Assembly: GCA_963815095.1 (NCBI GenBank)
Contig: CAWFFH010000002.1
Span: 1-11,024, forward strand
DNA: 11,024 bases
Source of the DNA: Candidatus Bathyarchaeota archaeon
GTDB taxonomy: Archaea; Thermoproteota; Bathyarchaeia; Bathyarchaeales; Bathycorpusculaceae
Direction of reading: 5' to 3'
Within the stretch, counting starts at the first letter, position 1, and each line of letters begins with the position of its first letter. A model generated the notes under the pieces. That model was not told where the DNA came from. It was given only the letters and a program-made list of their open reading frames with translations, and made no database searches. The translations under genes were made by a program, and so were the position numbers. This document shows, piece after piece, positions 1 to 11,024 of the stretch.

Positions 1-2
1 CT

Positions 3-698
3 GCGCTATCTCAACCGATTTTTCCACTGAACCTAAGAAACGTGAATGAGATTTTTCCAGGATTCGCATTAGGCGATTTTGCAGTTCTACAAGGTTCGTC
101 TGTTTCGTCTTTAACTTCCTTATTGTGCGTAAAATCCCAACTTCCAACCCAACTAGGCGGATTACAAAGCAATGTTATCTTCATTGATGGCGGCAACACA
201 TTTGGACTCTACCAAATCGCCAGACTTGCGCAACTTTGCCATCTTAACCCCAAACAGGTTTTAGACAACATCTACATTTCAAGAGCCTTCACAGCCTACC
301 AAGCAACCTCGCTAATTATGCATCATCTAAAGGAATCAATCAAAAAATACAACGCTAAACTGGTCATAATCTCAGATATTGCCGGATTCTTCTTAGACAA
401 AGACATTCCTGAAGATGAAGCCCAACACATATTCAGCCAAATTACGACTTATCTTTCAAACTTTGCAAGAGAAACCCAAACAATAATAATTGCAACCTAT
501 CCCCAACACCCAAACACCACACGAAACAGCTCTCTGCAAACCCTAACAAATGCCAAAGCAAATGTTGTTCTTTCTTTGAGAAGAACCAGTTATTCCAGGC
601 AATTTGTTTTAGAAAAACATCCTTACCTATCCTCAAAAGTTGCTGAACTGCCTTCAGAAGATTTAACGTTGGTGGATTTTGCGGAGGGTAATGCATAA
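3..698 (+). CDS. Inactivated RadA/Rad51-like protein associated with PolB2 (iRadA-type), probably 5'-partial
   Basis: RecA/RadA-fold motifs VIFIDGGNTF, LDNIYISRAFTAYQ and LVIISDI (Walker B-like). The Walker A region is degenerate (VLQGSSVSSLTS, no GKT). The frame is open from position 3 (ALSQPIFPLNLRNVNEIFPGF), so the true start probably lies outside the window rather than at GTG 42. Confidence 0.85.
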   Translation, partial: ALSQPIFPLNLRNVNEIFPGFALGDFAVLQGSSVSSLTSLLCVKSQLPTQLGGLQSNVIFIDGGNTFGLYQIARLAQLCHLNPKQVLDNIYISRAFTAYQATSLIMHHLKESIKKYNAKLVIISDIAGFFLDKDIPEDEAQHIFSQITTYLSNFARETQTIIIATYPQHPNTTRNSSLQTLTNAKANVVLSLRRTSYSRQFVLEKHPYLSSKVAELPSEDLTLVDFAEGNA

Positions 699-955
699 TG
701 GGGAAAACTGTTGAATCTTACCGGATGGCCATTGAGGATGAAATATCCCGGTGGAGCGGTTTTGGAAAAGCCTTGCGAATCGAAGATAAGGCAGCATTCG
801 ATGCGTTAATGGATGCTTGCCGAAGCTATGCATCAGCTGGAAGCAATGCTACAAATCCTATTCTTTTCGAACCCATGATCATGTCCATTTTACTCTCACA
901 GCAAGTAAAGATCAGCCGATTAGAGAAGGCATTGAATGCTATCAAGCAGCCCTAA
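698..955 (+). CDS. Small alpha-helical PolB2-associated protein (arCOG07300/PPB2-like)
   Basis: 85 aa, MGKTVESYRMAIEDEISRWSGFGKALRIEDKAAFDALMD...FEPMIMSILL. TAATG stop/start overlap with the upstream gene and a 20-nt overlap with the polymerase. Size, sequence and position fit the small protein known from polB2 neighbourhoods. Confidence 0.8.
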   Translation: MGKTVESYRMAIEDEISRWSGFGKALRIEDKAAFDALMDACRSYASAGSNATNPILFEPMIMSILLSQQVKISRLEKALNAIKQP

Positions 956-3212
956 AATCCGCGGCTGGATATTTGACGTTTACCCGGACAACATTGGCGA
1001 AATGGCAGTCTGGATAATTAGCGAAAATGGCCAAAGAATCAGATTAACAGACAAGTTTCAGCCAAAAATCTACGTTTCAGGCAAAAAAGAAGATGTCGAA
1101 AAACTCGTAGGGCGCATCTATTCCAACGAAAATATTGCCAATTGGTGTTTTGTTTACAAGTATGCGAACCCGATGGATGCAGAAAAATCAAGAGTTCTAG
1201 AGATAACGCTCAAGGATTGCAGAAAGGTTTCATCCTTAACCAATCAAATCCTCAAATTAGGTGACTACTTGACTTATGAAGTTCACAACTGCGATCTGAA
1301 GGGAGATAGAACCTACTTTTTTGAGCATGATTTGTTTCCGCTTGCTTTCTTAGAAGTCGAAGTCCTAAAAACAGGCCTAAAATACACTCTACTAGATTCT
1401 GTTGAGAGTATTGATTATTCGATTCCGCCGCTGAGAATAATGCAGTTAAGGGTTGAAATCGCTAAATCGGGGAAAATCGCAAGTCCTCAAGATCCCATAG
1501 CAAGTATTATTCTAAATGAACAAATAATCATTGATTCGGGTGATGAGGGAGAAAAACTTCTGCAGTTAAGCAAGATGGTGAAGGAATTTGACCCAGACAT
1601 TATAGTAACCAATGGCGGAGATTCCTACCTTTTCTCTTACATGCTCCAACGGGCAATCATCAGCGAAGTGTCTGATAAGTTTATTTTAAGCCGGGATGAG
1701 GTGCCTTTTGTTCCTAAAGCAGCGCAGGGGAAGACCTTCTTTTCCTATGGACGTACATTTTACAGAGCAGCAACCATTCGATTGTATGGAAGAGTTCACA
1801 TCGATGCAGGAAACACCTTCATTTTGAATGAAGCCAGCTTTCAAGGCCTATATGAAATTGCAAGGACTTGCAGAGCACCCTTGCATACTTCTTCTCGATC
1901 GTCAATTGGATCAAGCATGTCTTCGTTACAGTTCTACCAAGCCTTTAAACAAGAAATTCTGATTCCAAGAAACAAAAGCATCCCTGAAGCCTTCAAATCA
2001 GCCTATGAGCTTCTTGTTGCAGACCGCGGCGGTTTTGTTTATGAACCAAAAGTAGGCATTCACGACAATACGGGGGAAGTGGATTTTTCCTCGATGTATC
2101 CAAGCCTAATGGTTAACAACAACATCTCAGCGGAAACGGTCCTTTGTAAGTGTTGCCCAGACTCACACTTACGCATCCCCGAGCTCAACTACAATATATG
2201 CGAGAAACGTGAGGGAGTTGTTCCTAAGGCATTGAGGCTTGTTGTCCGCAAACGATTAGATTACAAGCGATTAAGAGATAAAACCACGGACCCAAAACTC
2301 AAGGAGATGTACGATAATCGGCAGACTGCTTTGAAATGGATTTTGGTTACATGTTTCGGTTATTTGGGTTATAGAAACGCGAAGTTTGGAACGGTGGATG
2401 GGCACATTGGGGTATGTGCCTTTGGGAGAGAAGCGTTTCTTAGGACTGCTCGGATTTCTGAAGGTTTAGGCTTTGAGGTGCTCCATGGAATTGTTGATTC
2501 TTTGTGGCTGAAAAAAGACGATGCTACCTTGGACGAATATCATGAATTGTGCAATTATGTAAGCAAGATTATTGAGGTTCCGCTGAATTTTGAGGGACGA
2601 TACAAATGGATTGTCTTCTTGCCCTCCAAGATGCATCCTAACATTGGCGTCTTAAACCGTTACTATGGGGTTATGGAAAGCGGAAAATTAAAAGTCAGAG
2701 GCTTAGAAGTACGCAAACACGACACTCCAAAGTTTGTTTACAACGCCCAAATGGATATGATAAACGTGTTTTCCACAGCTAACAACTCAACGGAGTTTAT
2801 GCAAAAGATTCCTCAAGCATTCGACGTTGTAAGGGCTTATCGACAGAAGCTACTTGATGGTGATGTGCCCATCGGCGATTTGATCATTTCTAAGCATCTA
2901 TCGAAAAACCCCATGCATTACAAACAGCACGTCAGCCAAGTAATCGCCGCTGAGCAATTAATCAAGGAAGGCGGCGAAGTCCATGCGGGCAACAGTGTAA
3001 AGTTTGTTTTCACCCATTCAGAAGATAAACGACATGAGCGCAGGGTAAAAGCAGCGCAACTTATTGTAGAAGATACTAACCCAGACAACAAAAAGTACCT
3101 GTCTTTACTCTATGCCTCGGCAGCCAATTTGCTTAGCTTCGCAGGCTACACAACTCAATCGGTCTATGAAACAATCTCAGGACAAAACCAAAAGAGTATC
3201 TTGGGATATTAA
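936..3212 (+). CDS. polB2: Family B DNA polymerase, archaeal PolB2 group
   Basis: 758 aa. Motif A VDFSSMYPS; motif B RQTALKWILVTCFGYLGY (KxxxNSxYG altered); motif C HGIVDSLW (YGDTDS altered); also NRYYG and KVRGLEVRKHD. Exonuclease motifs are degenerate (LRVE for FDIE; NGGDSYL). N-terminal GWIFDVYP. Confidence 0.93.
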   Translation: MLSSSPKIRGWIFDVYPDNIGEMAVWIISENGQRIRLTDKFQPKIYVSGKKEDVEKLVGRIYSNENIANWCFVYKYANPMDAEKSRVLEITLKDCRKVSSLTNQILKLGDYLTYEVHNCDLKGDRTYFFEHDLFPLAFLEVEVLKTGLKYTLLDSVESIDYSIPPLRIMQLRVEIAKSGKIASPQDPIASIILNEQIIIDSGDEGEKLLQLSKMVKEFDPDIIVTNGGDSYLFSYMLQRAIISEVSDKFILSRDEVPFVPKAAQGKTFFSYGRTFYRAATIRLYGRVHIDAGNTFILNEASFQGLYEIARTCRAPLHTSSRSSIGSSMSSLQFYQAFKQEILIPRNKSIPEAFKSAYELLVADRGGFVYEPKVGIHDNTGEVDFSSMYPSLMVNNNISAETVLCKCCPDSHLRIPELNYNICEKREGVVPKALRLVVRKRLDYKRLRDKTTDPKLKEMYDNRQTALKWILVTCFGYLGYRNAKFGTVDGHIGVCAFGREAFLRTARISEGLGFEVLHGIVDSLWLKKDDATLDEYHELCNYVSKIIEVPLNFEGRYKWIVFLPSKMHPNIGVLNRYYGVMESGKLKVRGLEVRKHDTPKFVYNAQMDMINVFSTANNSTEFMQKIPQAFDVVRAYRQKLLDGDVPIGDLIISKHLSKNPMHYKQHVSQVIAAEQLIKEGGEVHAGNSVKFVFTHSEDKRHERRVKAAQLIVEDTNPDNKKYLSLLYASAANLLSFAGYTTQSVYETISGQNQKSILGY

Positions 3213-3223
3213 ATGAAAAAAGA

Positions 3224-3507
3224 AATTCTCAATTTCGTTGCATGGAAATAGCTAACATGGCAAAAGCTGACAACAAAGAAACTGAAACAGTTAGACTGTT
3301 GAAACAGGTTTTAGTCGAGTGGAAAAGAAGGTGTTAAGCTAGTTTAGCCGTGTGCTAACGTCGATAAGGCAAAAGAGGGGCACATACATGCTTATCTCTT
3401 ATTAGCAGCCAAACCAGCCCAACTATAGGGGCTTGTCGGACTATGTCTGACCAGTATTACCGATTGAAAATAATATAAAATAATGCTGTCACAAACTGAA
3501 ACAACAA
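3224..3507. repeat. 284-bp direct repeat, copy 1
   Basis: Aligns without gaps to 8876-9159 (offset 5652). Mismatches only at 3230/8882, 3250/8902, 3316/8968 and 3320/8972. Confidence 0.97.
3322..3452 (-). ncRNA. Putative structured small RNA within repeat copy 1 (unassigned family)
   Basis: 15-bp stem GGGCUGGUUUGGCUG (3420-3406) / CGGCUAAACUAGCUU (3350-3336), fully paired only on the minus strand through G.U pairs. Inner helices CUAA/UUAG and GAUAAG/CUUAUC. TTTTATAT lies about 25 nt upstream and CUUCUUUUCC downstream. Ends are estimated. Confidence 0.5.
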
Positions 3508-3592
3508 AAATAACTATCCTCGCTAAAACCGTTGGATGCTATTTCAAAGAAAAGTTTACCTGTTTTGGGAGAGAGGGCGTTCTTGGGTCATG

Positions 3593-4537
3593 CTAATGCA
3601 TTAGGGGTGGAGCAAGTTCGGGCATGTCGTTTTTGAGAGTCATCATGTCCGAAAGGAGGTTTTCTGTTCCGCACCAGTATTTTCCTTCTCTTTCAATGGC
3701 ACCAGCGACATGTAGTCGTCTTAGGTAGTTAACAAGAACGGAGTCGTTGATTCTTCCGTATGTTGTTCGGTAGTATTGCATGATTGATTCTGTGGATAAG
3801 CAGATTTGTTCCTCTGCCTCGATAGCTGGTCTATAGATGCAGCTATCAATGTGGATTGAAGGCTGGAAACGGCTAATTTCGAAAACCTGTCGTAGGGCAG
3901 TGTAGTTTTTCCTTAGCAGTTCTGAGATTATGGCTTTTCTAAAACCTTCTTCCTGAAACTTTTCGTCTTCATATTTTTGATGCAATAGCCAATATGTTTC
4001 ACAGGTTTCAGCGATTTCCCCATTTTGGTGGATGATGTTCATAGCTTCGAGAAGCTGTAGGTATTGCTTGATTTTTGCTTGACTTTTTGCTGAGCGATGC
4101 CTTAGTAAATCGTCTATTGGCACGGATTCGTTTTCCAGAAAAGCACTTAGGATTTGGTCTATAGGCGTAAAGAAGTGACGAAACTCTGGAATTTGCACCA
4201 GACAATCAGCTGAGGCTTGAACAACTATCCGTTCTGTACGATCATAATAAGTTTTCAATAAGCATTGTATATTCTCGAGGCATTTTTCTCGGGGGGTTGA
4301 TTCACCACTTAGCAGACCCAGATTTTCATCAAAACTCACTTGACCTATCTGCTTGATAGGAATAAAATGTAGCAACACATCCTCGGGGCAACGATCATCT
4401 TGCAAATATATTGGATAGTCACTCTTTATGTTCGCGACCCATTTCCGGGCTTCTTTATCAAACTCGGGATTCTCTGCGCTGATATGAAGCCCATACTTGT
4501 GCAGAACATAACTTTTGATTGTTCTTTGCGCGCTCAA
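3593..4537 (-). CDS. Hypothetical protein with two probable winged-helix domains
   Basis: 314 aa. TTG start 1 nt after the peptidase stop, preceded by GGAGG. wHTH-like segments PIDDLL...KIKQYLQLLEAMNIIHQNGE and STESIM...VLVNYLRRLHVAGAIEREGKYW. Fold called by eye. Confidence 0.75.
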   Translation of the reverse strand: MSAQRTIKSYVLHKYGLHISAENPEFDKEARKWVANIKSDYPIYLQDDRCPEDVLLHFIPIKQIGQVSFDENLGLLSGESTPREKCLENIQCLLKTYYDRTERIVVQASADCLVQIPEFRHFFTPIDQILSAFLENESVPIDDLLRHRSAKSQAKIKQYLQLLEAMNIIHQNGEIAETCETYWLLHQKYEDEKFQEEGFRKAIISELLRKNYTALRQVFEISRFQPSIHIDSCIYRPAIEAEEQICLSTESIMQYYRTTYGRINDSVLVNYLRRLHVAGAIEREGKYWCGTENLLSDMMTLKNDMPELAPPLMH

Positions 4538-4538
4538 T

Positions 4539-5096
4539 CTAACTATCCTCCCGAGTAAATTCCTGTAATTTAGTTTGCTTTCTCTTTTCTACCTCAAGCA
4601 ATATTAAGGTTTTATCCACATTTTCATTCTCCCATTGAGAAATAAACGTTACTACATTCTCATTTCTTTGCCCACGTGCGGGGTCATTAACTGTAACAAC
4701 GCCTTTTTCTCGGTCAATATCGATGATTACCACTGAATGTCCACATCCAATGTTGCTGTTGCGTTTGTCGGTTATCCAAATCCAAGCTATGACGGGGTTT
4801 CCTTTTTCATTTTCTTTCAGAACAGTTTTCCAGTCAGAAGGATATTTAGCGATAAACCGAATGCAAAAGTTTGAGGTAACCAGAGAGTCATTAATTAAAG
4901 AAATGTTGTCGATGGTTGTTTGGCCGCCGCTTTTTGTGTCAGTTCTTATTTGCTTGGCTATCTTGTTTATAGGAACATTAGGTATTTCTTTTTCGCCATA
5001 AACTTGCCGCAAATAGTCTATAATCATCTTCATGCAGGCAGGCACACAGTAATCGGGGTGTGGCTGACGGTAAAGTGGCACGTTTATTCTTGGCAC
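4539..5096 (-). CDS. C39-like (papain-fold) cysteine peptidase, stand-alone, no signal peptide
   Basis: VPLYRQPHPDYCVPAC (oxyanion Gln, catalytic Cys), GHSVVI (His) and VNDPARG (Asp). GTG start. Confidence 0.88.
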   Translation of the reverse strand: MPRINVPLYRQPHPDYCVPACMKMIIDYLRQVYGEKEIPNVPINKIAKQIRTDTKSGGQTTIDNISLINDSLVTSNFCIRFIAKYPSDWKTVLKENEKGNPVIAWIWITDKRNSNIGCGHSVVIIDIDREKGVVTVNDPARGQRNENVVTFISQWENENVDKTLILLEVEKRKQTKLQEFTREDS

Positions 5097-5120
5097 GCAC
5101 TGATTATCTGTTCACTTTCC

Positions 5121-5132
5121 ATATAAGCTTTA
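5121..5132 (-). promoter_or_regulatory. Probable BRE/TATA promoter of the peptidase-wHTH operon
   Basis: Minus strand reads AAAGCTTATAT 25-35 nt upstream of the GTG at 5096, which fits a leaderless archaeal transcript. Confidence 0.5.
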
Positions 5133-5328
5133 ATGAGTTGCTATTTGAAGCAGTAAGACTTTTCCATAAGATCGAGCATTTCCAAGATACCTACCATTAC
5201 CTTCTCAGAGATAGACTGCTGAAGGTCAACCTGTTTGGATGGTTCCCCAAAAATAGTTTTGCCAATAAAGATTGATAGAGGGCGAAGCTGCAGTTCAGGA
5301 AAAACAAAATTCGATATAACCGCAAGGC

Positions 5329-6624
5329 CTAAGAAAATGATCCAAAAATGCCCGACTTTGTTTTTACTGATTTCCGCCGAAGGACTAAGAGAATTATTAG
5401 GGCAACAATTACAACTGCAGCAACAACTGGGATTATTATATATTGGCTGTTAAGCGATGTTGATGGAGAAGCACCCATGGCATAGATATTGTTGCCGCCT
5501 GCAATGTATAGAACACCGTTGACAATGGCAGCAGACGCCCCAACATAATTACCAGTTGTGTAGCTCCAGAGTTTTGTGCCGTTAGTAGCGCTTAATGCGT
5601 AAACAGCTTTTTCGCCGCCTATGTAGACAGTGTCGTCGTTAACTGCAGGCGATGATGTAATTGAGTTGCCTATGGTATAATTCCACAGCTTATCGCCGCT
5701 TGCAGAGTTCAAAGCGTAAACGTTGCCGTCATGAGAGCTTATGTACATTATGCCTTCGTTAACTGCAGGCGATGACTCAATATAGCCACCTGTGCTGTAA
5801 TTCCAGAGTTGAGCTCCATTTTCAGCGTTCAAAGCAAAAATTGTGTTACCGCCGCCCCCAATGTATACCACGCCATCGACAACGGCTGGCGAAGAAACAA
5901 GTTCCTTGCCTGAACCGCCAGTGGTATAATTCCAAAGCTTAGCGCCATTAGCGGCATTCAATGCGTAAACGTCGCCAAACCATGAGCCTACATAGACCAC
6001 ATTATCAACAACAGCAGGTGATGAGCCAACGTAGAAAGGCGTTGTATAGTTCCAAAGTTTAGCGCCGTTTGTGGCATTTAGGGCATACACGTTGGAGTCT
6101 TGGGAGCCTACGTAGACGACCCCGTTTACAACGGTTGGAGAGGAAATAACTAAGTCTCCAGTTGTGTGGTTCCAGAGCTTTTCCCCAGTGGTGGCGTTCA
6201 CAGCGTAAACGTTGTAATCGAGTGAGCCTATATAGACCACGCCGTTGGCAACAGCGGGGGATGAAGCAACCGTGGGTGGGATTACACCGCCTTGGAAAAT
6301 ACCCCCAATGTTGAAATTCCAGAGTTTATCTCCGTTAGTGGCGTTTAGGGCATAGAGGTTTTTGTCATCTGAGCCTATGTACACCACGCCATTGCTAACG
6401 GCAGGCGATGAAACAATAGAGTTGCCAGCGGTGTATTTCCAGATTAGCGTTGAGGTAAGCACCGCATTGTTAGTTGCAACACCACTATGGGATGGGTCCG
6501 CATGGAACATAGGCCAGTCACCAGAAGCAAAGGCGGCTTGAACGTAATATTCAAAGGATGTTGCAGTTGTCGCTGTGATCAGGATTACCGAAATTAGAGT
6601 TATTGCTATTACTTTCTTGTTCAT
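5329..6624 (-). CDS. PQQ-like (BamB-type) beta-propeller repeat surface protein with signal peptide and C-terminal membrane anchor
   Basis: N-terminal MNKKVIAITLISVILI, a DWPMFHAD motif, and eight ~40-aa repeats (LWNYTTG..V.SSPAV.NGVVYIGS.D.NVYALNA.NG). C-terminal IIIPVVAAVVIVALIILLVLRRK. Many N-x-S/T sequons. The 120-nt DNA periodicity is visible, e.g. TCGTTAACTGCAGGCGATGA at 5636 and 5756. Confidence 0.93.
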   Translation of the reverse strand: MNKKVIAITLISVILITATTATSFEYYVQAAFASGDWPMFHADPSHSGVATNNAVLTSTLIWKYTAGNSIVSSPAVSNGVVYIGSDDKNLYALNATNGDKLWNFNIGGIFQGGVIPPTVASSPAVANGVVYIGSLDYNVYAVNATTGEKLWNHTTGDLVISSPTVVNGVVYVGSQDSNVYALNATNGAKLWNYTTPFYVGSSPAVVDNVVYVGSWFGDVYALNAANGAKLWNYTTGGSGKELVSSPAVVDGVVYIGGGGNTIFALNAENGAQLWNYSTGGYIESSPAVNEGIMYISSHDGNVYALNSASGDKLWNYTIGNSITSSPAVNDDTVYIGGEKAVYALSATNGTKLWSYTTGNYVGASAAIVNGVLYIAGGNNIYAMGASPSTSLNSQYIIIPVVAAVVIVALIILLVLRRKSVKTKSGIFGSFS

Positions 6625-6679
6625 ACCGCACCATGGTTATTTTATCTGCGTTAAGTTAAAAGTGTTCTCGTACAACTTT

Positions 6680-6711
6680 CTTGACTAAACCCAGTCAAGG
6701 TTTCTTAACTA
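6680..6711. promoter_or_regulatory. Palindromic motif CTTGACT-N6-AGTCAAG-N4-CTTAACT, copy 1
   Basis: Seen directly. 6681-6711 is 27/31 identical to 8810-8840. Lies ~57 nt upstream of the beta-propeller start. Confidence 0.65.
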
Positions 6712-7135
6712 AGAAATAGAGGATGGCTACACCAAATCGCTGGAAAAGGTCATTTCGACTTTGAGGTATTTCGATGCCGTCTGTAAAGAAGCATTGAAAT
6801 AAGCCCTAAAAATGCTATCAAGACAATTGCGATTATATCAGTTAATGAGACAATTGCAGGACAAAACCAAAAAAAACCCTCAGATTACTAAAACAGCGCT
6901 TTTTCAAAAGGAATGCGGCTCAAATATATCGAAGGACTAATCAAAGATCGTATACCTGTGGCTAGAGAAACTGAGCAAGTAGTGTTCGACGCTGTGGCTT
7001 TGCCCTGCCCCTTGCCACCTAGAGGGAGACTGTTGAGGGCATCCCCGTTTGGACGCCGCCCAAAAAATAACTTGCCAGGTATTGGAAAAAAAGGTTGGAT
7101 TAGTTTTAAAAGCAAACACGAATATAGAGTTAGTC

Positions 7136-7630
7136 ATGGCTGTTGAGAAACAAGGCTTTTCCCGTAGGAATTGGAAGCGAATAGTATACTACTCGATAAT
7201 TTTTTCAACATTTATTGCGATAACTTTTTGGGTGTATCTTCAGGAAATTAACCACTTAATTGAGAATGACACTGCTAATTTCATCAATAATGTCACTTAT
7301 ATTACCTATTTTACTCTAATATTTTTAGAGCCATTTTCACGAGATAAAAAAAGAGCGTACCTTGTTCGCAAGACAACACCATTTGTAATACCTATTTTTG
7401 CTGTCAGTTTAGGGCTCCTTTACTTAGACTATAATTTAGTGATCAATAAAACAATAAATGAAATTGAATACCTAAACCAATACACCATAATACTGGTCGC
7501 TTACTTCCTTTGCTATATACTAGTTTATGGTTTGTTCTGGATTCAAGACTGGAGAAGAGAAAGAAAAAACAATTACCTGAATAACACTATCCCGCCAAGC
7601 ATTCCGCCTCCACCCCGCCATAGAGCTTAG
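7136..7630 (+). CDS. Hypothetical integral membrane protein (about 4 TM segments, Pro-rich C-terminal tail)
   Basis: Four hydrophobic segments and a tail TIPPSIPPPPRHRA. ATG 7136 is preferred over TTG 7049 because TTTTAAAA at 7104-7111 lies 25-30 nt upstream. 164 aa. Confidence 0.75.
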   Translation: MAVEKQGFSRRNWKRIVYYSIIFSTFIAITFWVYLQEINHLIENDTANFINNVTYITYFTLIFLEPFSRDKKRAYLVRKTTPFVIPIFAVSLGLLYLDYNLVINKTINEIEYLNQYTIILVAYFLCYILVYGLFWIQDWRRERKNNYLNNTIPPSIPPPPRHRA

Positions 7631-7897
7631 TAATTTCTTATTCTTCCTTTTTGTGTTTTTTAGATTGAGCTGCTCTAAACTCAAAAGAAGAAAAGTAATT
7701 GATCAAGGTTAGAAGCAAAGCGGCCTTTGCATTTTTGTTGAACTTGTCTTCAGAAAAAGTTGTTTTTTTCTGAATTATAAAAGGACTTGTTAGCAAGACT
7801 AACATCTTCAAATGATAGTTTTGTAATTGCGCCTGCACACTCACAGAGGTATATATCTCAGCATGATATATTTGAGTCGTTTGAGGAGATATTGGGT

Positions 7898-8113
7898 ATG
7901 AGGAGAAAGTTAAAAGGTCGATGTCCGTGCGGTTATAGTTTTGAAATCTTAGGCGATATATGTGAAGCCATATCTGTAGTACGGAGACATGTAGATAGTT
8001 TTCACAAAGATTTTCTCCCATTTGGAATAACAAATGATGAAGCGCTAGAACTTCTTAATAAGGGACATGAACTGAAGAACTCCTCAATTGCAAGGCCTCT
8101 TCAGTGCATATAA
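7898..8113 (+). CDS. Small putative metal-binding protein (CPCG...H-x4-H, DUF1059-like pattern)
   Basis: MRRKLKGRCPCGYSF...RRHVDSFH. ATG 7898 is preceded by GAGGAG and by TATATAT near 7850, so it is preferred over 7787. 71 aa. Confidence 0.65.
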   Translation: MRRKLKGRCPCGYSFEILGDICEAISVVRRHVDSFHKDFLPFGITNDEALELLNKGHELKNSSIARPLQCI

Positions 8114-8245
8114 AAGTCCGCTTATAGAGTTAAAAAGCCAGTTTAAGGCCAATTTTTTTCATAGACCTTATGATTTAACGCTGGCTTAACCGAGCGAAAG
8201 GACTCTGGGCTAACTAAGATAGAGAAGCTTTTACTTTCTTTGTAG

Positions 8246-8761
8246 TCATGGAATCATTATTGTTGCTTGGTCTAATACAGTATCACCAATTCTTAATGTA
8301 ACATTAAGAGCATATCCACGTATTTTATAGGAGTCATCCATGTTATTTAGAGCAGCACCATGCAATTCTTTTACTTCCCCTTGTTGTAAAGGACTTAGGA
8401 ACCATGGTTGCCCCATCTCAATGAATCCTTGGTCAGCGGGATTAGCATTATTAAAGAATCTAATTGTTCTAGTCATATTATAGGGGCTTTCACTGACAAA
8501 AGTCAAAGTCAAGTTATCTACTCTTTGTGTTTCATTGTTTGTAACTTCAATAATAAACCCAGCATGCCAACTTAGCCCTTCTGCAGGAAAGAAACCAGTA
8601 AAGTGAAAATTTGTAATATGGACATTAGAAATAGGTTTCATTGAAGGTGTAGGAGTCTGTATATTACTTGTTTGAGGATTGTTAAAGAGTGATGATAGAA
8701 TTAAGACGAAGACTAAGACAACTGCAATTGAAATAACTATAGATAGTCTAATCTTATTCAT
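8246..8761 (-). CDS. Hypothetical exported/membrane-anchored protein, beta-rich (possibly Ig-like) domain
   Basis: N-terminal hydrophobic helix, a Pro/Thr linker (QTPTPS), then a beta-strand pattern (FIIEVTNNETQRVDNLTLTF, LQQGEVKEL, LNVTLRIGDTVLD) with N-glycosylation sequons. Confidence 0.8.
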   Translation of the reverse strand: MNKIRLSIVISIAVVLVFVLILSSLFNNPQTSNIQTPTPSMKPISNVHITNFHFTGFFPAEGLSWHAGFIIEVTNNETQRVDNLTLTFVSESPYNMTRTIRFFNNANPADQGFIEMGQPWFLSPLQQGEVKELHGAALNNMDDSYKIRGYALNVTLRIGDTVLDQATIMIP

Positions 8762-8809
8762 ACTCTCAGCTTACCACTATAGCAATAAGAGCTTTTTTGT
8801 CCACATCTA

Positions 8810-8840
8810 TTGACTAAGCCAAGTCAAGATTTCTTGACTA
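8810..8840. promoter_or_regulatory. Palindromic motif TTGACT-N6-AGTCAAG-N4-CTTGACT, copy 2
   Basis: Seen directly, ~49 nt upstream of the 8761 start. Same orientation relative to its gene as copy 1. Confidence 0.65.
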
Positions 8841-8875
8841 TCTTAAAGCATAATTAACCAGTGTTTTTCTGACAT

Positions 8876-9159
8876 AATTCTTAATTTCGTTGCATGGAAA
8901 TCGCTAACATGGCAAAAGCTGACAACAAAGAAACTGAAACAGTTAGACTGTTGAAACAGGTTTTAGTGGAGGGGAAAAGAAGGTGTTAAGCTAGTTTAGC
9001 CGTGTGCTAACGTCGATAAGGCAAAAGAGGGGCACATACATGCTTATCTCTTATTAGCAGCCAAACCAGCCCAACTATAGGGGCTTGTCGGACTATGTCT
9101 GACCAGTATTACCGATTGAAAATAATATAAAATAATGCTGTCACAAACTGAAACAACAA
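8876..9159. repeat. 284-bp direct repeat, copy 2
   Basis: 280/284 identical to 3224-3507. Confidence 0.97.
8974..9104 (-). ncRNA. Putative structured small RNA within repeat copy 2
   Basis: Identical in sequence to 3322-3452. Confidence 0.5.
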
Positions 9160-9165
9160 TAAAAA

Positions 9166-9402
9166 TTAGTTGTCCTGAACTATCATAAGTGTTAGTGAAC
9201 TGTTTACGCCTGCGATTGGTTTTATTCGTTGTTTGGTTATTTCTTTTAGTTTATCAACGGAGTTGCCTTTGATTTTGATTAATAGATCGTAGACCCCGTA
9301 AAGTGCGTGTGCTTCTTCTACCCCGTCTACAAGCTTTAGGCTTTCTAGTATTTTGTCTTGGGTACCTGAATCCGTATTTAATAGAACAACTGCAGAAATC
9401 AT
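9166..9402 (-). CDS. Stand-alone Lrp/AsnC ligand-binding (RAM) domain protein
   Basis: 78 aa, AVVLLN...GVEEAHALYGVYDLLIKI...IKPIAGVNSSLTLMIV. No N-terminal HTH. Confidence 0.92.
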   Translation of the reverse strand: MISAVVLLNTDSGTQDKILESLKLVDGVEEAHALYGVYDLLIKIKGNSVDKLKEITKQRIKPIAGVNSSLTLMIVQDN

Positions 9403-9760
9403 ATCTTTAACCTCGCTGTTTTGAGTCTATCTTGAAACAGCATAATTAAGATGTGTTGTTGCTTACGTGAAGCCACAACCGCTAACTAAGAGGTATGAAC
9501 CATTCATGAAGGTTCAGTTCGATGGGCTATGCAACTTTTGGATGATGTAGTGAACAAGAGAAGGCGCTTGAGCGATTACTCTCCTAAATTTCTGCGGACA
9601 CGATCTCTTTCTCAAAAAGAGGCTTCAAAGAAGAAAATACACAATTCCAATGATTATAATTTATCGCAAAGCAGGAAAAATCACAGTAAACAAATATAGC
9701 CTAAACACCAGATTAATAAAAACATCATAAGCAGAAATAGAAGCTAAGTGGGCACCCGTC

Positions 9761-11024
9761 TTGAAAAAATTAGTGACATTGATTGCAGTTACGATGCTAA
9801 TCATTGTTGTTTTAGTTTCAGCGCTATTCGTAGAATCAAACAAAACCGCTTCATCAAACGGTAACACGAACAAGCCATTCTATGTAGGCGTAACCTTTGG
9901 CGGAGAAAATAGTACCGATGCGAAACACCTAATCGATAGAGTGAAAGACTACACAAACTTGTTTGTTATAGCATCAGGTCCTTTACAGTATAATATTGCC
10001 GAACTAGAGCGTACTTGTGACTACGCAGTTAAATCAGGATTAGACATCATCGTTTACTTCGGTTCTTATGAATCGCAGAGAAATACCACCATAGACTTCA
10101 GTGATACTGCAAAGGAACGATGGGGTAACCACTTCTTAGGAATTTACTATGGAGATGAACCAAGCGGGAAAGCACTAGAAAACCGTTTGAATTTACAAAA
10201 TGTCCCTAACTTAGGGAATGTAACCAAAGACCAATTAGGGATTGAGATTAGCCAGACTGTCGGATCTAGCTGGAATAACAAATATTTTAGTTATTCAGGT
10301 GAAATTGATATAAATTGTTATGACCCGCCAAATAGCAACATGACAACTTACTATCCAAATGGAACAGTTACATTATCAAAAAGCTATGCCGATGATAATG
10401 CCAGAAATGAATTCTTAATTTACCTACCAAACGGAACAACACTAAAACAAGAAAGCTCTCCACCTGCAAACAATAATTACATAGTTGACCAAAATGGAAC
10501 AACTATTCTCCAACAAACAACACATATCCCCTGGCCAACACTAACCTATTCAATTGTAGAGGATAAAGGTAACTTCTCCCAATTTGAACCATACCTGCAA
10601 CTGTGGAATTCAAGACCATTCCAAACAATAGATGATTTATCAACAGTAGCTAAATCGTATGTAAGTACCCAACAAGAAACGACGAACTGGATAACTAATC
10701 AAAGCAACGTTAAACTTTTCACTTCTGATTATGTACTTCATTGGTGGGATTACCAAATAGGCTATGACACAGTTTTTGCTGAACTAGGTTGGAACAACAC
10801 AGTATCCCAAGAAATCGGTCTTGTGAGAGGAGCAGCGAATTTGCAGAATAAGAGTTGGGGAACAATCATCACTTGGAAATACACACAGCCACCTTATTTG
10901 ACAAGTGGCGATGAGATGTATGACCAAATGCTTACATCATATGAGTGCGGTGCTAAGTATGTGGTGGTTTTTAACTACGCTAATGGCATGGATGGTCCGT
11001 ATGGGATATTGCAAGATGAGCATT
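9761..11024 (+). CDS. Secreted/anchored hypothetical protein, possibly glycoside-hydrolase-like TIM barrel, 3'-partial
   Basis: Not in the ORF track because it has no stop in the window. Hand translation from TTG 9761 is open for 421 codons: MKKLVTLIAVTMLIIVVLVSALF..PFYVGVTFGG..LIDRVKDYTNLFVI..CDYAVKSGLDIIVYFG..FLGIYYGDEPSGK..LFTSDYVLHWWDY..GYDTVFAELGWN..RGAANLQNKSWGTIITW..GAKYVVVFNY. Confidence 0.85.
   Translation, partial: MKKLVTLIAVTMLIIVVLVSALFVESNKTASSNGNTNKPFYVGVTFGGENSTDAKHLIDRVKDYTNLFVIASGPLQYNIAELERTCDYAVKSGLDIIVYFGSYESQRNTTIDFSDTAKERWGNHFLGIYYGDEPSGKALENRLNLQNVPNLGNVTKDQLGIEISQTVGSSWNNKYFSYSGEIDINCYDPPNSNMTTYYPNGTVTLSKSYADDNARNEFLIYLPNGTTLKQESSPPANNNYIVDQNGTTILQQTTHIPWPTLTYSIVEDKGNFSQFEPYLQLWNSRPFQTIDDLSTVAKSYVSTQQETTNWITNQSNVKLFTSDYVLHWWDYQIGYDTVFAELGWNNTVSQEIGLVRGAANLQNKSWGTIITWKYTQPPYLTSGDEMYDQMLTSYECGAKYVVVFNYANGMDGPYGILQDEH

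Follow-up and report, generated by a model that had tools for sequence, protein, structure and literature searches.

Comparison with described systems

In bacteria, sibling small RNAs (sRNAs) such as Qrr1-5 are encoded by several paralogous genes per genome, which carry the same upstream regulator site and combine a conserved body with variable parts. Bathyarchaeia are abundant and mostly uncultured archaea of soil, peat, and sediment, and the present analysis concerns an 11,024-bp stretch of DNA from a Candidatus Bathyarchaeota archaeon (hereafter the window), which comprises one whole contig (C2) of a genome of 2.69 Mb in nine contigs (G000). The window contains two copies of a 293-nt repeat, and each copy likely carries an independent gene that specifies a structured non-coding RNA of ~125-135 nt, predicted on the minus strand and belonging to a multigene family confined to one genus. 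The closest described archaeal systems are intergenic regulatory sRNAs, such as sRNA162 of Methanosarcina mazei (PMC3510493; review PMC4152357), and, for a family of small protein genes found behind the same operator, Brz, a small CPxCG zinc-finger regulator of haloarchaea whose gene immediately precedes bop and shares its orientation (PMC2253796).

Archaeal intergenic sRNAs of the sRNA162 type resemble the element in being independent small intergenic units with their own transcription factor B recognition element (BRE)/TATA promoter and an oligo-U end (here predicted), and in providing structured RNAs of 100-200 nt with single-stranded stretches able to pair with targets. In contrast, the element has no sequence or Rfam relation to them and occurs in up to 11 paralogues behind a common palindromic operator within one Bathyarchaeia genus. 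The likeness to Qrr1-5 lies in paralogous sRNA genes with a common upstream site, a conserved structured body, and variable parts, although the domain of life and the promoter type are different and copies here also ride mobile-element-like DNA. With Brz, there is in common a very small zinc-ribbon gene directly upstream of, and co-directional with, a unit that it possibly controls; however, the downstream partner here would be an RNA gene, and the 47-aa protein falls below every curated-family cut-off. This likeness may provide a lead for the role of the 47-aa protein. The short, multi-copy, hairpin-forming, and sharply bounded intergenic units also recall miniature inverted-repeat transposable elements (MITEs) and IS200/IS605-derived elements (palindrome-associated transposable elements, PATEs, and omega-RNA scaffolds), but they lack terminal inverted repeats, the genome has neither TnpA nor a TnpB match above the cut-off, and the copies are syntenically stable. 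No non-coding RNA family was found described in Bathyarchaeia or Bathyarchaeota in the full-text literature searched, supplements not being covered; as predicted here, the element is an undescribed small RNA family whose known range is a single genus of uncultured Bathyarchaeia.

Copy number, distribution, and genomic settings

The two repeat copies in the window, A and B, lie in direct orientation at a spacing of 5652 nt and mismatch at 7 of 293 positions (3230, 3250, 3316, 3320, 3508, 3511, and 3514), four of which precede the core on its left side while the other three fall in the frayed right-hand end. An earlier note on this DNA had counted four differences, all outside the core, and correctly reported 187 nt of perfect identity at 3321-3507. 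Its description of a duplicated RNA candidate likewise stands as far as the duplication goes, but the repeat is more than a mere duplication, as it belongs to a genus-wide multigene family. In the source genome, a DNA search returned four long and two short matches, iterated nhmmer 13 places (two of them partial), and a covariance model 11. This model, R1, was built from 75 copies and comprises 157 positions with 31 pairs. Altogether, 92 related copies were gathered, of which 77 are distinct, and the per-member counts given below use these 77 distinct rows.

The module, ~190 nt in length, was detected by the covariance model in 97 of 120 genomes of the genus, including 60 of the 73 high-quality ones, with 1-11 copies each and ~350 hits altogether. 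The same model gave no match in 145 genomes from 69 other genera of the family, a search with stricter filters than that of the genus, so that the element was not found there rather than absent; a DNA search was also negative in 24 genomes across 11 other families of the order. Scanning public genomes with a sequence pattern yielded 68 stretches, 58 of which contain the full element, nearly all from metagenome-assembled genomes labelled Bathyarchaeota/Bathyarchaeia; the sole exception among the full elements is L110, a 4.7-kb contig with a bacterial label. The other ten pattern loci, nine of which are labelled as bacteria, lack the full element and appear to be chance matches, and viral carriage was rejected, the single pattern match in viral contigs being without the full element.

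Copies are located between ilvD and ilvB, after NAC/Lpd, between genes for a P-type ATPase and HisRS (antisense to both), after the gene for ribosomal protein L10, near a radical-SAM gene, after CheB, and in mobile-element-like regions with polymerase-B and Rad51-like genes. Syntenic sites include ilvD-ilvB in G000, L084, and L115, NAC/Lpd in L068, and the P-type ATPase site in L080, L062, and L106; since several sites are common to different species, individual paralogues are inherited vertically. Across 30 ilvD loci, the RNA lies within 1.5 kb at six. A separate observation at this site is a strongly conserved ilvB leader of ~80 nt (L208:~880-960 and the same place in L214-L217), which repeats a GGGATCGTC motif (GGGATCGTCACCTC...GGGATCGTCGGGTAC) and could be a cis-regulatory RNA or a protein site of branched-chain amino-acid genes.

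Predicted fold, pairing conservation, and strand preference

On the minus strand, positions 3322-3452 fold at -40.3 kcal/mol (z = -3.07, with 2 of 200 shuffles as good), compared with -36.5 kcal/mol on the plus strand (z = -1.10, with 28 of 200 shuffles as good). The predicted minus-strand structure is a rod of three helices (Table 1). For its basal stem, the earlier note had proposed 15 bp with five G.U pairs; the stem is longer than that, but the five wobble pairs are present (3420/3336, 3419/3337, 3415/3341, 3410/3346, and 3407/3349), and all of them would be A.C on the plus strand. The CUAA/UUAG and GAUAAG/CUUAUC segments and the loop sequence GUGCCCCUCUUU also recur in the minus-strand fold. 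Along the RNA strand, the family shows a constant order, namely the operator TTGTTGTTTCAnTTTGTGACAAC, the TATA region ATTATTTTATATT, ~20 nt with a conserved YTAAC, an A-rich leader, and then the rod, in which a helix 1 of 16-17 bp is followed by a 3' C-N-N-G bulge, a helix 2 of 6 bp, an internal loop, and a helix 3 of 9 bp; the tail has the form CnnnCUUUUUGCCCC. The bulge reads CATG in 26 members, CTCG in 9, and CACG in 9; CCCC is found in 29 of 77 apical loops compared with 7 expected; and the leader, with 41% A across the distinct members, is kept within paralogue groups and differs between them.

Conservation of pairing was evaluated in two alignments, a plain MAFFT alignment of 75 copies, which is not structure-fitted, and a model-fitted alignment of 77 rows, which leans towards structure. 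In the former, 87.4% of 2313 cells pair, and 18 of 31 pairs show changes on both sides (98 cells), a level matched by 0-1 of 500 shuffles; controls with slid partners reached at most 44.9%. In the latter, 89.1% of cells pair, with 119 double-change cells matched by none of 500 shuffles. Helix-1 columns interchange G.U, A-U, and G-C (GU 48/GC 10/AU 9 and GU 39/AU 18/GC 14 in the MAFFT alignment), helix 2 is paired in 93.1% of cells and has both-side changes in four of its six pairs, and helix 3 shows compensatory changes in all nine pairs, with 75-81% of cells paired. Pairing is also better on the minus strand, both in helix 1 (92.3% vs 73.9% on the plus strand) and over all helices (89.1% vs 78.2%), and the RNAalifold consensus energy is -9.95 on the minus strand vs 0.0 on the plus strand, a consensus stem forming only on the former. 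The structured minus-strand RNA put forward in the earlier note is thus supported by three helices kept with compensatory changes in the 92 gathered copies, and its preference for that strand by these values, with which the promoter orientation agrees. The hairpin at 3435-3451, which the same note had conceded to pair better on the plus strand, indeed does so in both folds, and this stretch lies in the family-variable part. The module boundaries, the predicted fold, the preferred strand, the direction of the promoter, and the distribution are all demonstrated by comparison of the copies.

Table 1. Features of the two repeat copies and of the predicted RNA, in window coordinates
Feature	Position	Strand	Basis or remark
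293-nt repeat, copy A	3224..3516	n/a	RNA module plus 86 nt downstream of the module
293-nt repeat, copy B	8876..9168	n/a	repeat scan and copy comparison
Copy A predicted RNA, ~128 nt	3323..3452	-	fold; covariance-model match 3315-3467, 109.5 bits
Copy B predicted RNA	8975..9104	-	copy A coordinates + 5652; covariance-model match 8967-9119, 112.1 bits
Copy A palindromic operator TTGTTGTTTCAGTTTGTGACAGC (TTGTTG-N11-GACAGC)	3485..3507	-	directly upstream of TATA region; position weight matrix (PWM) and regular-expression scans
Copy A A/T-rich BRE/TATA region ATTATTTTATATTAT	3470..3484	-	adjoins operator
Copy B operator (9137-9159) and TATA region (9122-9136)	9122..9159	-	identical to copy A
Copy A 5' leader	3424..3452	-	single-stranded in model; specific to paralogue group
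Helix 1, 5' arm	3407..3423	-	17 bp with 3333-3349; five G.U pairs
Helix 1, 3' arm	3333..3349	-	pairs with 3407-3423
4-nt 3' bulge between helices 1 and 2	3350..3353	-	CACG here; family consensus C-N-N-G
Helix 2, 5' arm, UGCUAA	3401..3406	-	pairs with 3354-3359
Helix 2, 3' arm, UUAGCA	3354..3359	-	fold
Helix 3, 5' arm, GAUAAGCA	3389..3396	-	pairs within 3363-3371; 8 bp in copy A fold
Helix 3, 3' arm	3363..3371	-	fold and family alignment
Pyrimidine-rich apical loop UGUAUGUGCCCCUCUUU, 17 nt	3372..3388	-	family loops 74% C+U
Pyrimidine tract CCUUCUUUUCC with U4 run 3323-3326	3321..3331	-	predicted archaeal terminator
78-aa Lrp/AsnC ligand-binding-domain gene	9166..9402	-	PF01037, E = 1.2e-10; directly upstream of copy B, co-directional

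Rfam 15 covariance models, which also cover 6S RNA, ribozymes, riboswitches, and C/D and H/ACA RNAs, gave no match at E<=1 over the whole window, and ARAGORN predicted no transfer RNA (tRNA) or transfer-messenger RNA gene in it, in agreement with the earlier note, which did not recognize the candidate as a tRNA, signal recognition particle RNA, RNase P RNA, or 5S RNA. When eight loci with other members were compared with Rfam, the sole match was RAGATH-8 (24.8 bits vs a gathering threshold of 86.7) at L030:1077-1217, outside the RNA at 1548-1703. Two finer structural proposals of the earlier note did not survive the comparison. Of the 77 distinct members, only 4 retain its k-turn-like GA/GA internal loop; the 3' side of the loop begins with GA in 27 of 77, and its dimensions are 5-6 nt vs 4 nt rather than the 3 vs 0 of a k-turn of the L7Ae type, in which tandem sheared G.A/A.G pairs follow the bulge, and such a k-turn was therefore rejected. 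The riboswitch-like AGCCC/GGGCU pairing that would compete with the basal stem is weak, the mean duplex energy being -7.9 kcal/mol compared with -6.5 kcal/mol for shuffled leaders; the basal stem is far stronger and is retained by the minimum free energy structure in 62 of 77 members.

Promoter, operator, and predicted ends of the RNA

The operator together with the TATA element is the best-conserved part of the module. The operator has the consensus TTGTTG-N11-GACAAC, an imperfect palindrome of TTGTTG and CAACAA half-sites, and three positions of the TATA element (T36, T38, and T40) are invariant in 33 aligned copies. The TATA-like element noticed earlier upstream of the candidate corresponds to the A/T-rich region adjoining the operator, and the pyrimidine tract noticed downstream of it is present as well. 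tRNA promoters of the same genome include forms with CAACA and a T/A-box. Across 11 orthologous loci linked to AsnC, mean column identity amounts to 0.93-0.95 over the operator and TATA region and 0.53-0.92 over the RNA, lowest over the loop, and drops to 0.31-0.47 immediately beyond the T tract, so that the predicted terminator marks the end of the conserved block. A T-run of at least four follows the rod in 64 of 77 members, and one of at least five in 32 of 77. Transcription and the exact ends of the RNA are what we infer from these signals, with a start ~22-25 nt downstream of the TATA element, near 3450 in copy A (3448-3452), and an end at the U4 tract.

A PWM of operator plus TATA matched three extra sites in the genome (C8:21907, C3:331906, and C6:207542), each upstream of a small open reading frame (ORF) in the same orientation as in the RNA modules. 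The ORFs behind these sites encode a 47-aa CPxCG...CxxCG zinc-ribbon protein, its frameshifted relative, and a 79-aa protein with two Cys pairs. Because the operator lies upstream of the TATA element relative to the transcription of these protein genes, its orientation in the modules fits a minus-strand RNA. Among the sites of a relaxed operator pattern, only C7:62090 and the AsnC-like promoter at window 9455-9478 were judged worth keeping. The former (G000:C7:62090-62113) consists of a perfect TTGTTG-N12-GACAAC with an A/T box, upstream of a 30-codon ORF and a longer ORF of unknown type. The latter (operator-like TTGTGGCTTCACGTAAGCAACAAC with TCTTAATTAT, minus strand) lies upstream of the 78-aa AsnC/RAM-domain gene, shows 0.95 column identity in the 11 orthologous loci, and is present in the contig-4 paralogue too. 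A CRISPR leader or repeat was considered owing to CTGAAAC in the operator; a repeat scan of the window, the genome itself not being scanned for arrays, found no CRISPR array adjoining either copy.

Zinc-ribbon and other small proteins behind the same operator

The 47-aa zinc-ribbon gene lies at G000:C8:21734-21874 (L132:1331-1477), and members of its family occur at many loci (L160-L207). Within the genus, 53 of the 61 genomes sampled carry the family, a single genome having as many as 16 matches; outside the genus it was detected in only 8 of 145 genomes of other genera, where its relatives are ~60 aa long and have a K-rich tail. No Pfam or NCBIfam model matched the 47-aa protein at its cut-off. 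At all 19 orthologous zinc-ribbon loci L160-L178, TTGTTGTTC...TTTGAGACAACAA and then TTTCATATAG precede the start codon, this combination being judged as operator plus TATA by eye; a short-motif nhmmer search recovered 7 of 35 upstream regions at E<0.01. The 79-aa family (G000:C3:331637-331870; L133:1234-1473), which lies behind the same operator, was found in 52 of the 61 sampled genomes.

Besides the common operator, the RNA and the zinc-ribbon genes are often neighbours. Of 78 RNA copies, 16 have a zinc-ribbon gene within 1.2 kb, in every case on the strand of the RNA, and this gene lies upstream in 15 cases and downstream in one; among them, L030 and L072 represent a single pair that has been duplicated in inverted orientation, and owing to orthology the 16 adjacencies are not independent events. 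Conversely, the RNA is found within 1.5 kb of 7 of 25 zinc-ribbon loci and of none of 25 loci of the 79-aa family. In a genome of 2.5 Mb with ~10 zinc-ribbon genes, such proximity would arise by chance far less often than observed. With a common operator, the RNA and the zinc-ribbon genes are probably switched together. The window itself contains no member of the zinc-ribbon family. In one relative, identical zinc-ribbon-plus-RNA pairs (G003:C4:1876-2376 and 9870-10370; L030 and L171) are inverted and flank ~8 kb, an arrangement that could be a composite or invertible segment.

Weighing of alternative explanations

A real minus-strand RNA gene family remains quite probable on this evidence, but a number of observations count against it. 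Shuffle-based covariation statistics are inflated by the kinship of the sequences, and the results on pairing and covariation are therefore taken as support rather than proof. Helix 3 is without strand preference (80.7% minus vs 80.3% plus), one helix-1 position is C.A in 36-37 members and would be a wobble on the other strand, and G.T wobble would also be compatible with a hairpin of single-stranded DNA formed by the minus strand itself. The apical loop has T-runs of at least four in 52 of 77 members and of at least five in 29 of 77, so that archaeal polymerase could stop before the rod is complete. The relaxed operator pattern gave 52 genome sites compared with 43-56 in shuffled genomes and thus provides no sign of a wider regulon. 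As for the candidate functions tried, an anti-Shine-Dalgarno mimic was rejected, as CCUCC is found in 0 of 77 loops and CCUC in 16 vs 12.9 expected; targeting of the zinc-ribbon mRNAs was also rejected, since their pairing with the RNAs does not exceed that of background genes, mean crude duplex energies to nine starts (~-41) being weaker than those to 150 random gene starts (~-49). At ilvD-ilvB, finally, the locus is dispensable, with a ~400-nt spacer without the RNA in G010 and G124, and G001 has an apparently decayed copy there.

The ilvD-ilvB polymorphism among close species also favours a rather improbable alternative, in which the family is a selfish, non-autonomous mobile DNA element, similar to a MITE or a short interspersed nuclear element, whose hairpin acts at the DNA level or is incidental and whose transcript, if any, is functionless. 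The multi-copy state, the sharp ends, and the restriction to one genus would be expected of such an element, as would the location of 7 of the 13 copies of the source genome in mobile-element-like DNA and the inverted identical pair flanking 8 kb in one relative. However, the consensus ends (TTGTTGTTTCA... vs ...TTTTTGCCCC, CTTTTTGCCCC) are not inverted repeats or complementary, as read by eye, as for a target duplication, the filled (G000 and G011) and empty (G010 and G124) ilvD-ilvB spacers show none, but they are too diverged around the junctions for one to be read. Copies occupy the same syntenic places across species and diverge along with their neighbours, compensatory change with strand bias maintains the pairing, and the operator is common to the module and to protein genes, none of which suits a selfish element. 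The enzymes are missing as well: PF01797 (Y1 transposase) has no match in the genome, PF07282 (TnpB) has one match, far from any copy, with a score of 21 bits, which is below the cut-off of 26.3, and no transposase is found among 73 proteins neighbouring copies. The repeat was accordingly rejected as an IS200/IS605 end, a PATE, or an omega-RNA.

It is less probable still that the promoter fires on the plus strand or both ways out of the element, or that the rod belongs to an upstream co-directional gene as its cis-acting 3'-end or terminator structure. The near symmetry of the TATA region and the purine-rich, BRE-like run on its plus-strand side make plus-strand initiation possible as far as the sequence goes, and a co-directional gene precedes many copies at a distance of 50-230 nt. 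Against these readings, only the 3' ends of minus-strand genes lie beyond both window copies on the plus strand, the operator is always upstream of the TATA element relative to the ORF in the protein-gene cases, pairing is worse on the plus strand, and between the P-type ATPase and HisRS genes the RNA runs antisense to both neighbours. It is very unlikely that the repeat is a recombination or attachment site of the bracketed 5.6-kb segment. The direct 293-nt repeats do bracket genes that are partly missing from the paralogous contig-4 region, but the block inserted relative to contig 4 spans 3213-6837 rather than the whole inter-repeat segment and is itself flanked by a different 30-nt direct repeat of the polymerase gene 3' end (3166-3195 and 6845-6874, 26/30 identical), and most members of the family are single, in housekeeping loci without such an insertion.

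Possible mechanism and implications

For the RNA gene family, a tentative mechanism may be proposed, in which a presumably dimeric transcription factor would bind the palindromic operator abutting the BRE/TATA region and the resulting RNA would consist of an A-rich leader, a 31-bp three-helix rod with its C-N-N-G bulge and C/U-rich loop, and an oligo-U tail. Such an RNA might act in trans as a regulatory sRNA or as part of a ribonucleoprotein (RNP), in which case the paralogue-specific leader and the C/U-rich loop would recognize targets while the conserved rod would offer a handle to a protein, possibly the zinc-ribbon protein. A more speculative extension, which is to be regarded as doubtful, is that the RNA and the 47-aa CPxCG protein are two parts of one genus-specific system under one operator, often in tandem, multi-copy, and both mobile and chromosomal. 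The zinc-ribbon protein would then be the regulator that binds the operator, or would bind the rod as a small RNP that paralogue-specific leaders guide to different targets. If true, this would be a guide-plus-handle arrangement, which is not known to have been described in archaea outside CRISPR and small nucleolar RNA-like systems.

The family provides a well-bounded RNA that can be tested, an operator for fishing its regulator, and a possible protein partner; should the link between the RNA and the zinc-ribbon protein be functional, it would represent a new small-RNP or regulatory module to study. It also offers an example of small RNA genes multiplying and turning over within one archaeal genus, mobile DNA included.

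Genomic surroundings of the window copies

Copy B is, as judged by comparison, the ancestral, AsnC-linked paralogue. The 78-aa AsnC/RAM-domain gene adjoins the RNA in at least 11 other loci, the gene and the RNA being kept as a block. Copy A is carried by the extra block that is present in the window and missing from the paralogous contig-4 region, and therefore appears to have come with this cassette, which also encodes a 314-aa protein without a Pfam match, a C39-like peptidase, and a pyrroloquinoline quinone (PQQ) propeller. The 3.65-kb block between the 30-nt repeats resembles a site-specific cassette insertion at the end of the polymerase gene; no recombinase was recognised.

The contig as a whole resembles part of a mobile element, with a Rad51-like ATPase and a family-B DNA polymerase. 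Window positions 1-3213 and 6837-9491 have two paralogues on contig 4, G000:C4:15170-20550 and G000:C4:230446-233645, with 87-92% and 77% identity; the former has its polymerase divided between two ORFs, and short remnants occur on contigs C1 and C3. A 26-codon ORF inside the repeat (3258-3338, plus strand) is probably not a gene, since its ATG is lost in the contig-4 copy; it also has a W to G change in copy B. The repeat families D2 and D3 (period ~120 nt, 5617-6363) are coding repeats of PQQ/beta-propeller blades in a 431-aa minus-strand gene.

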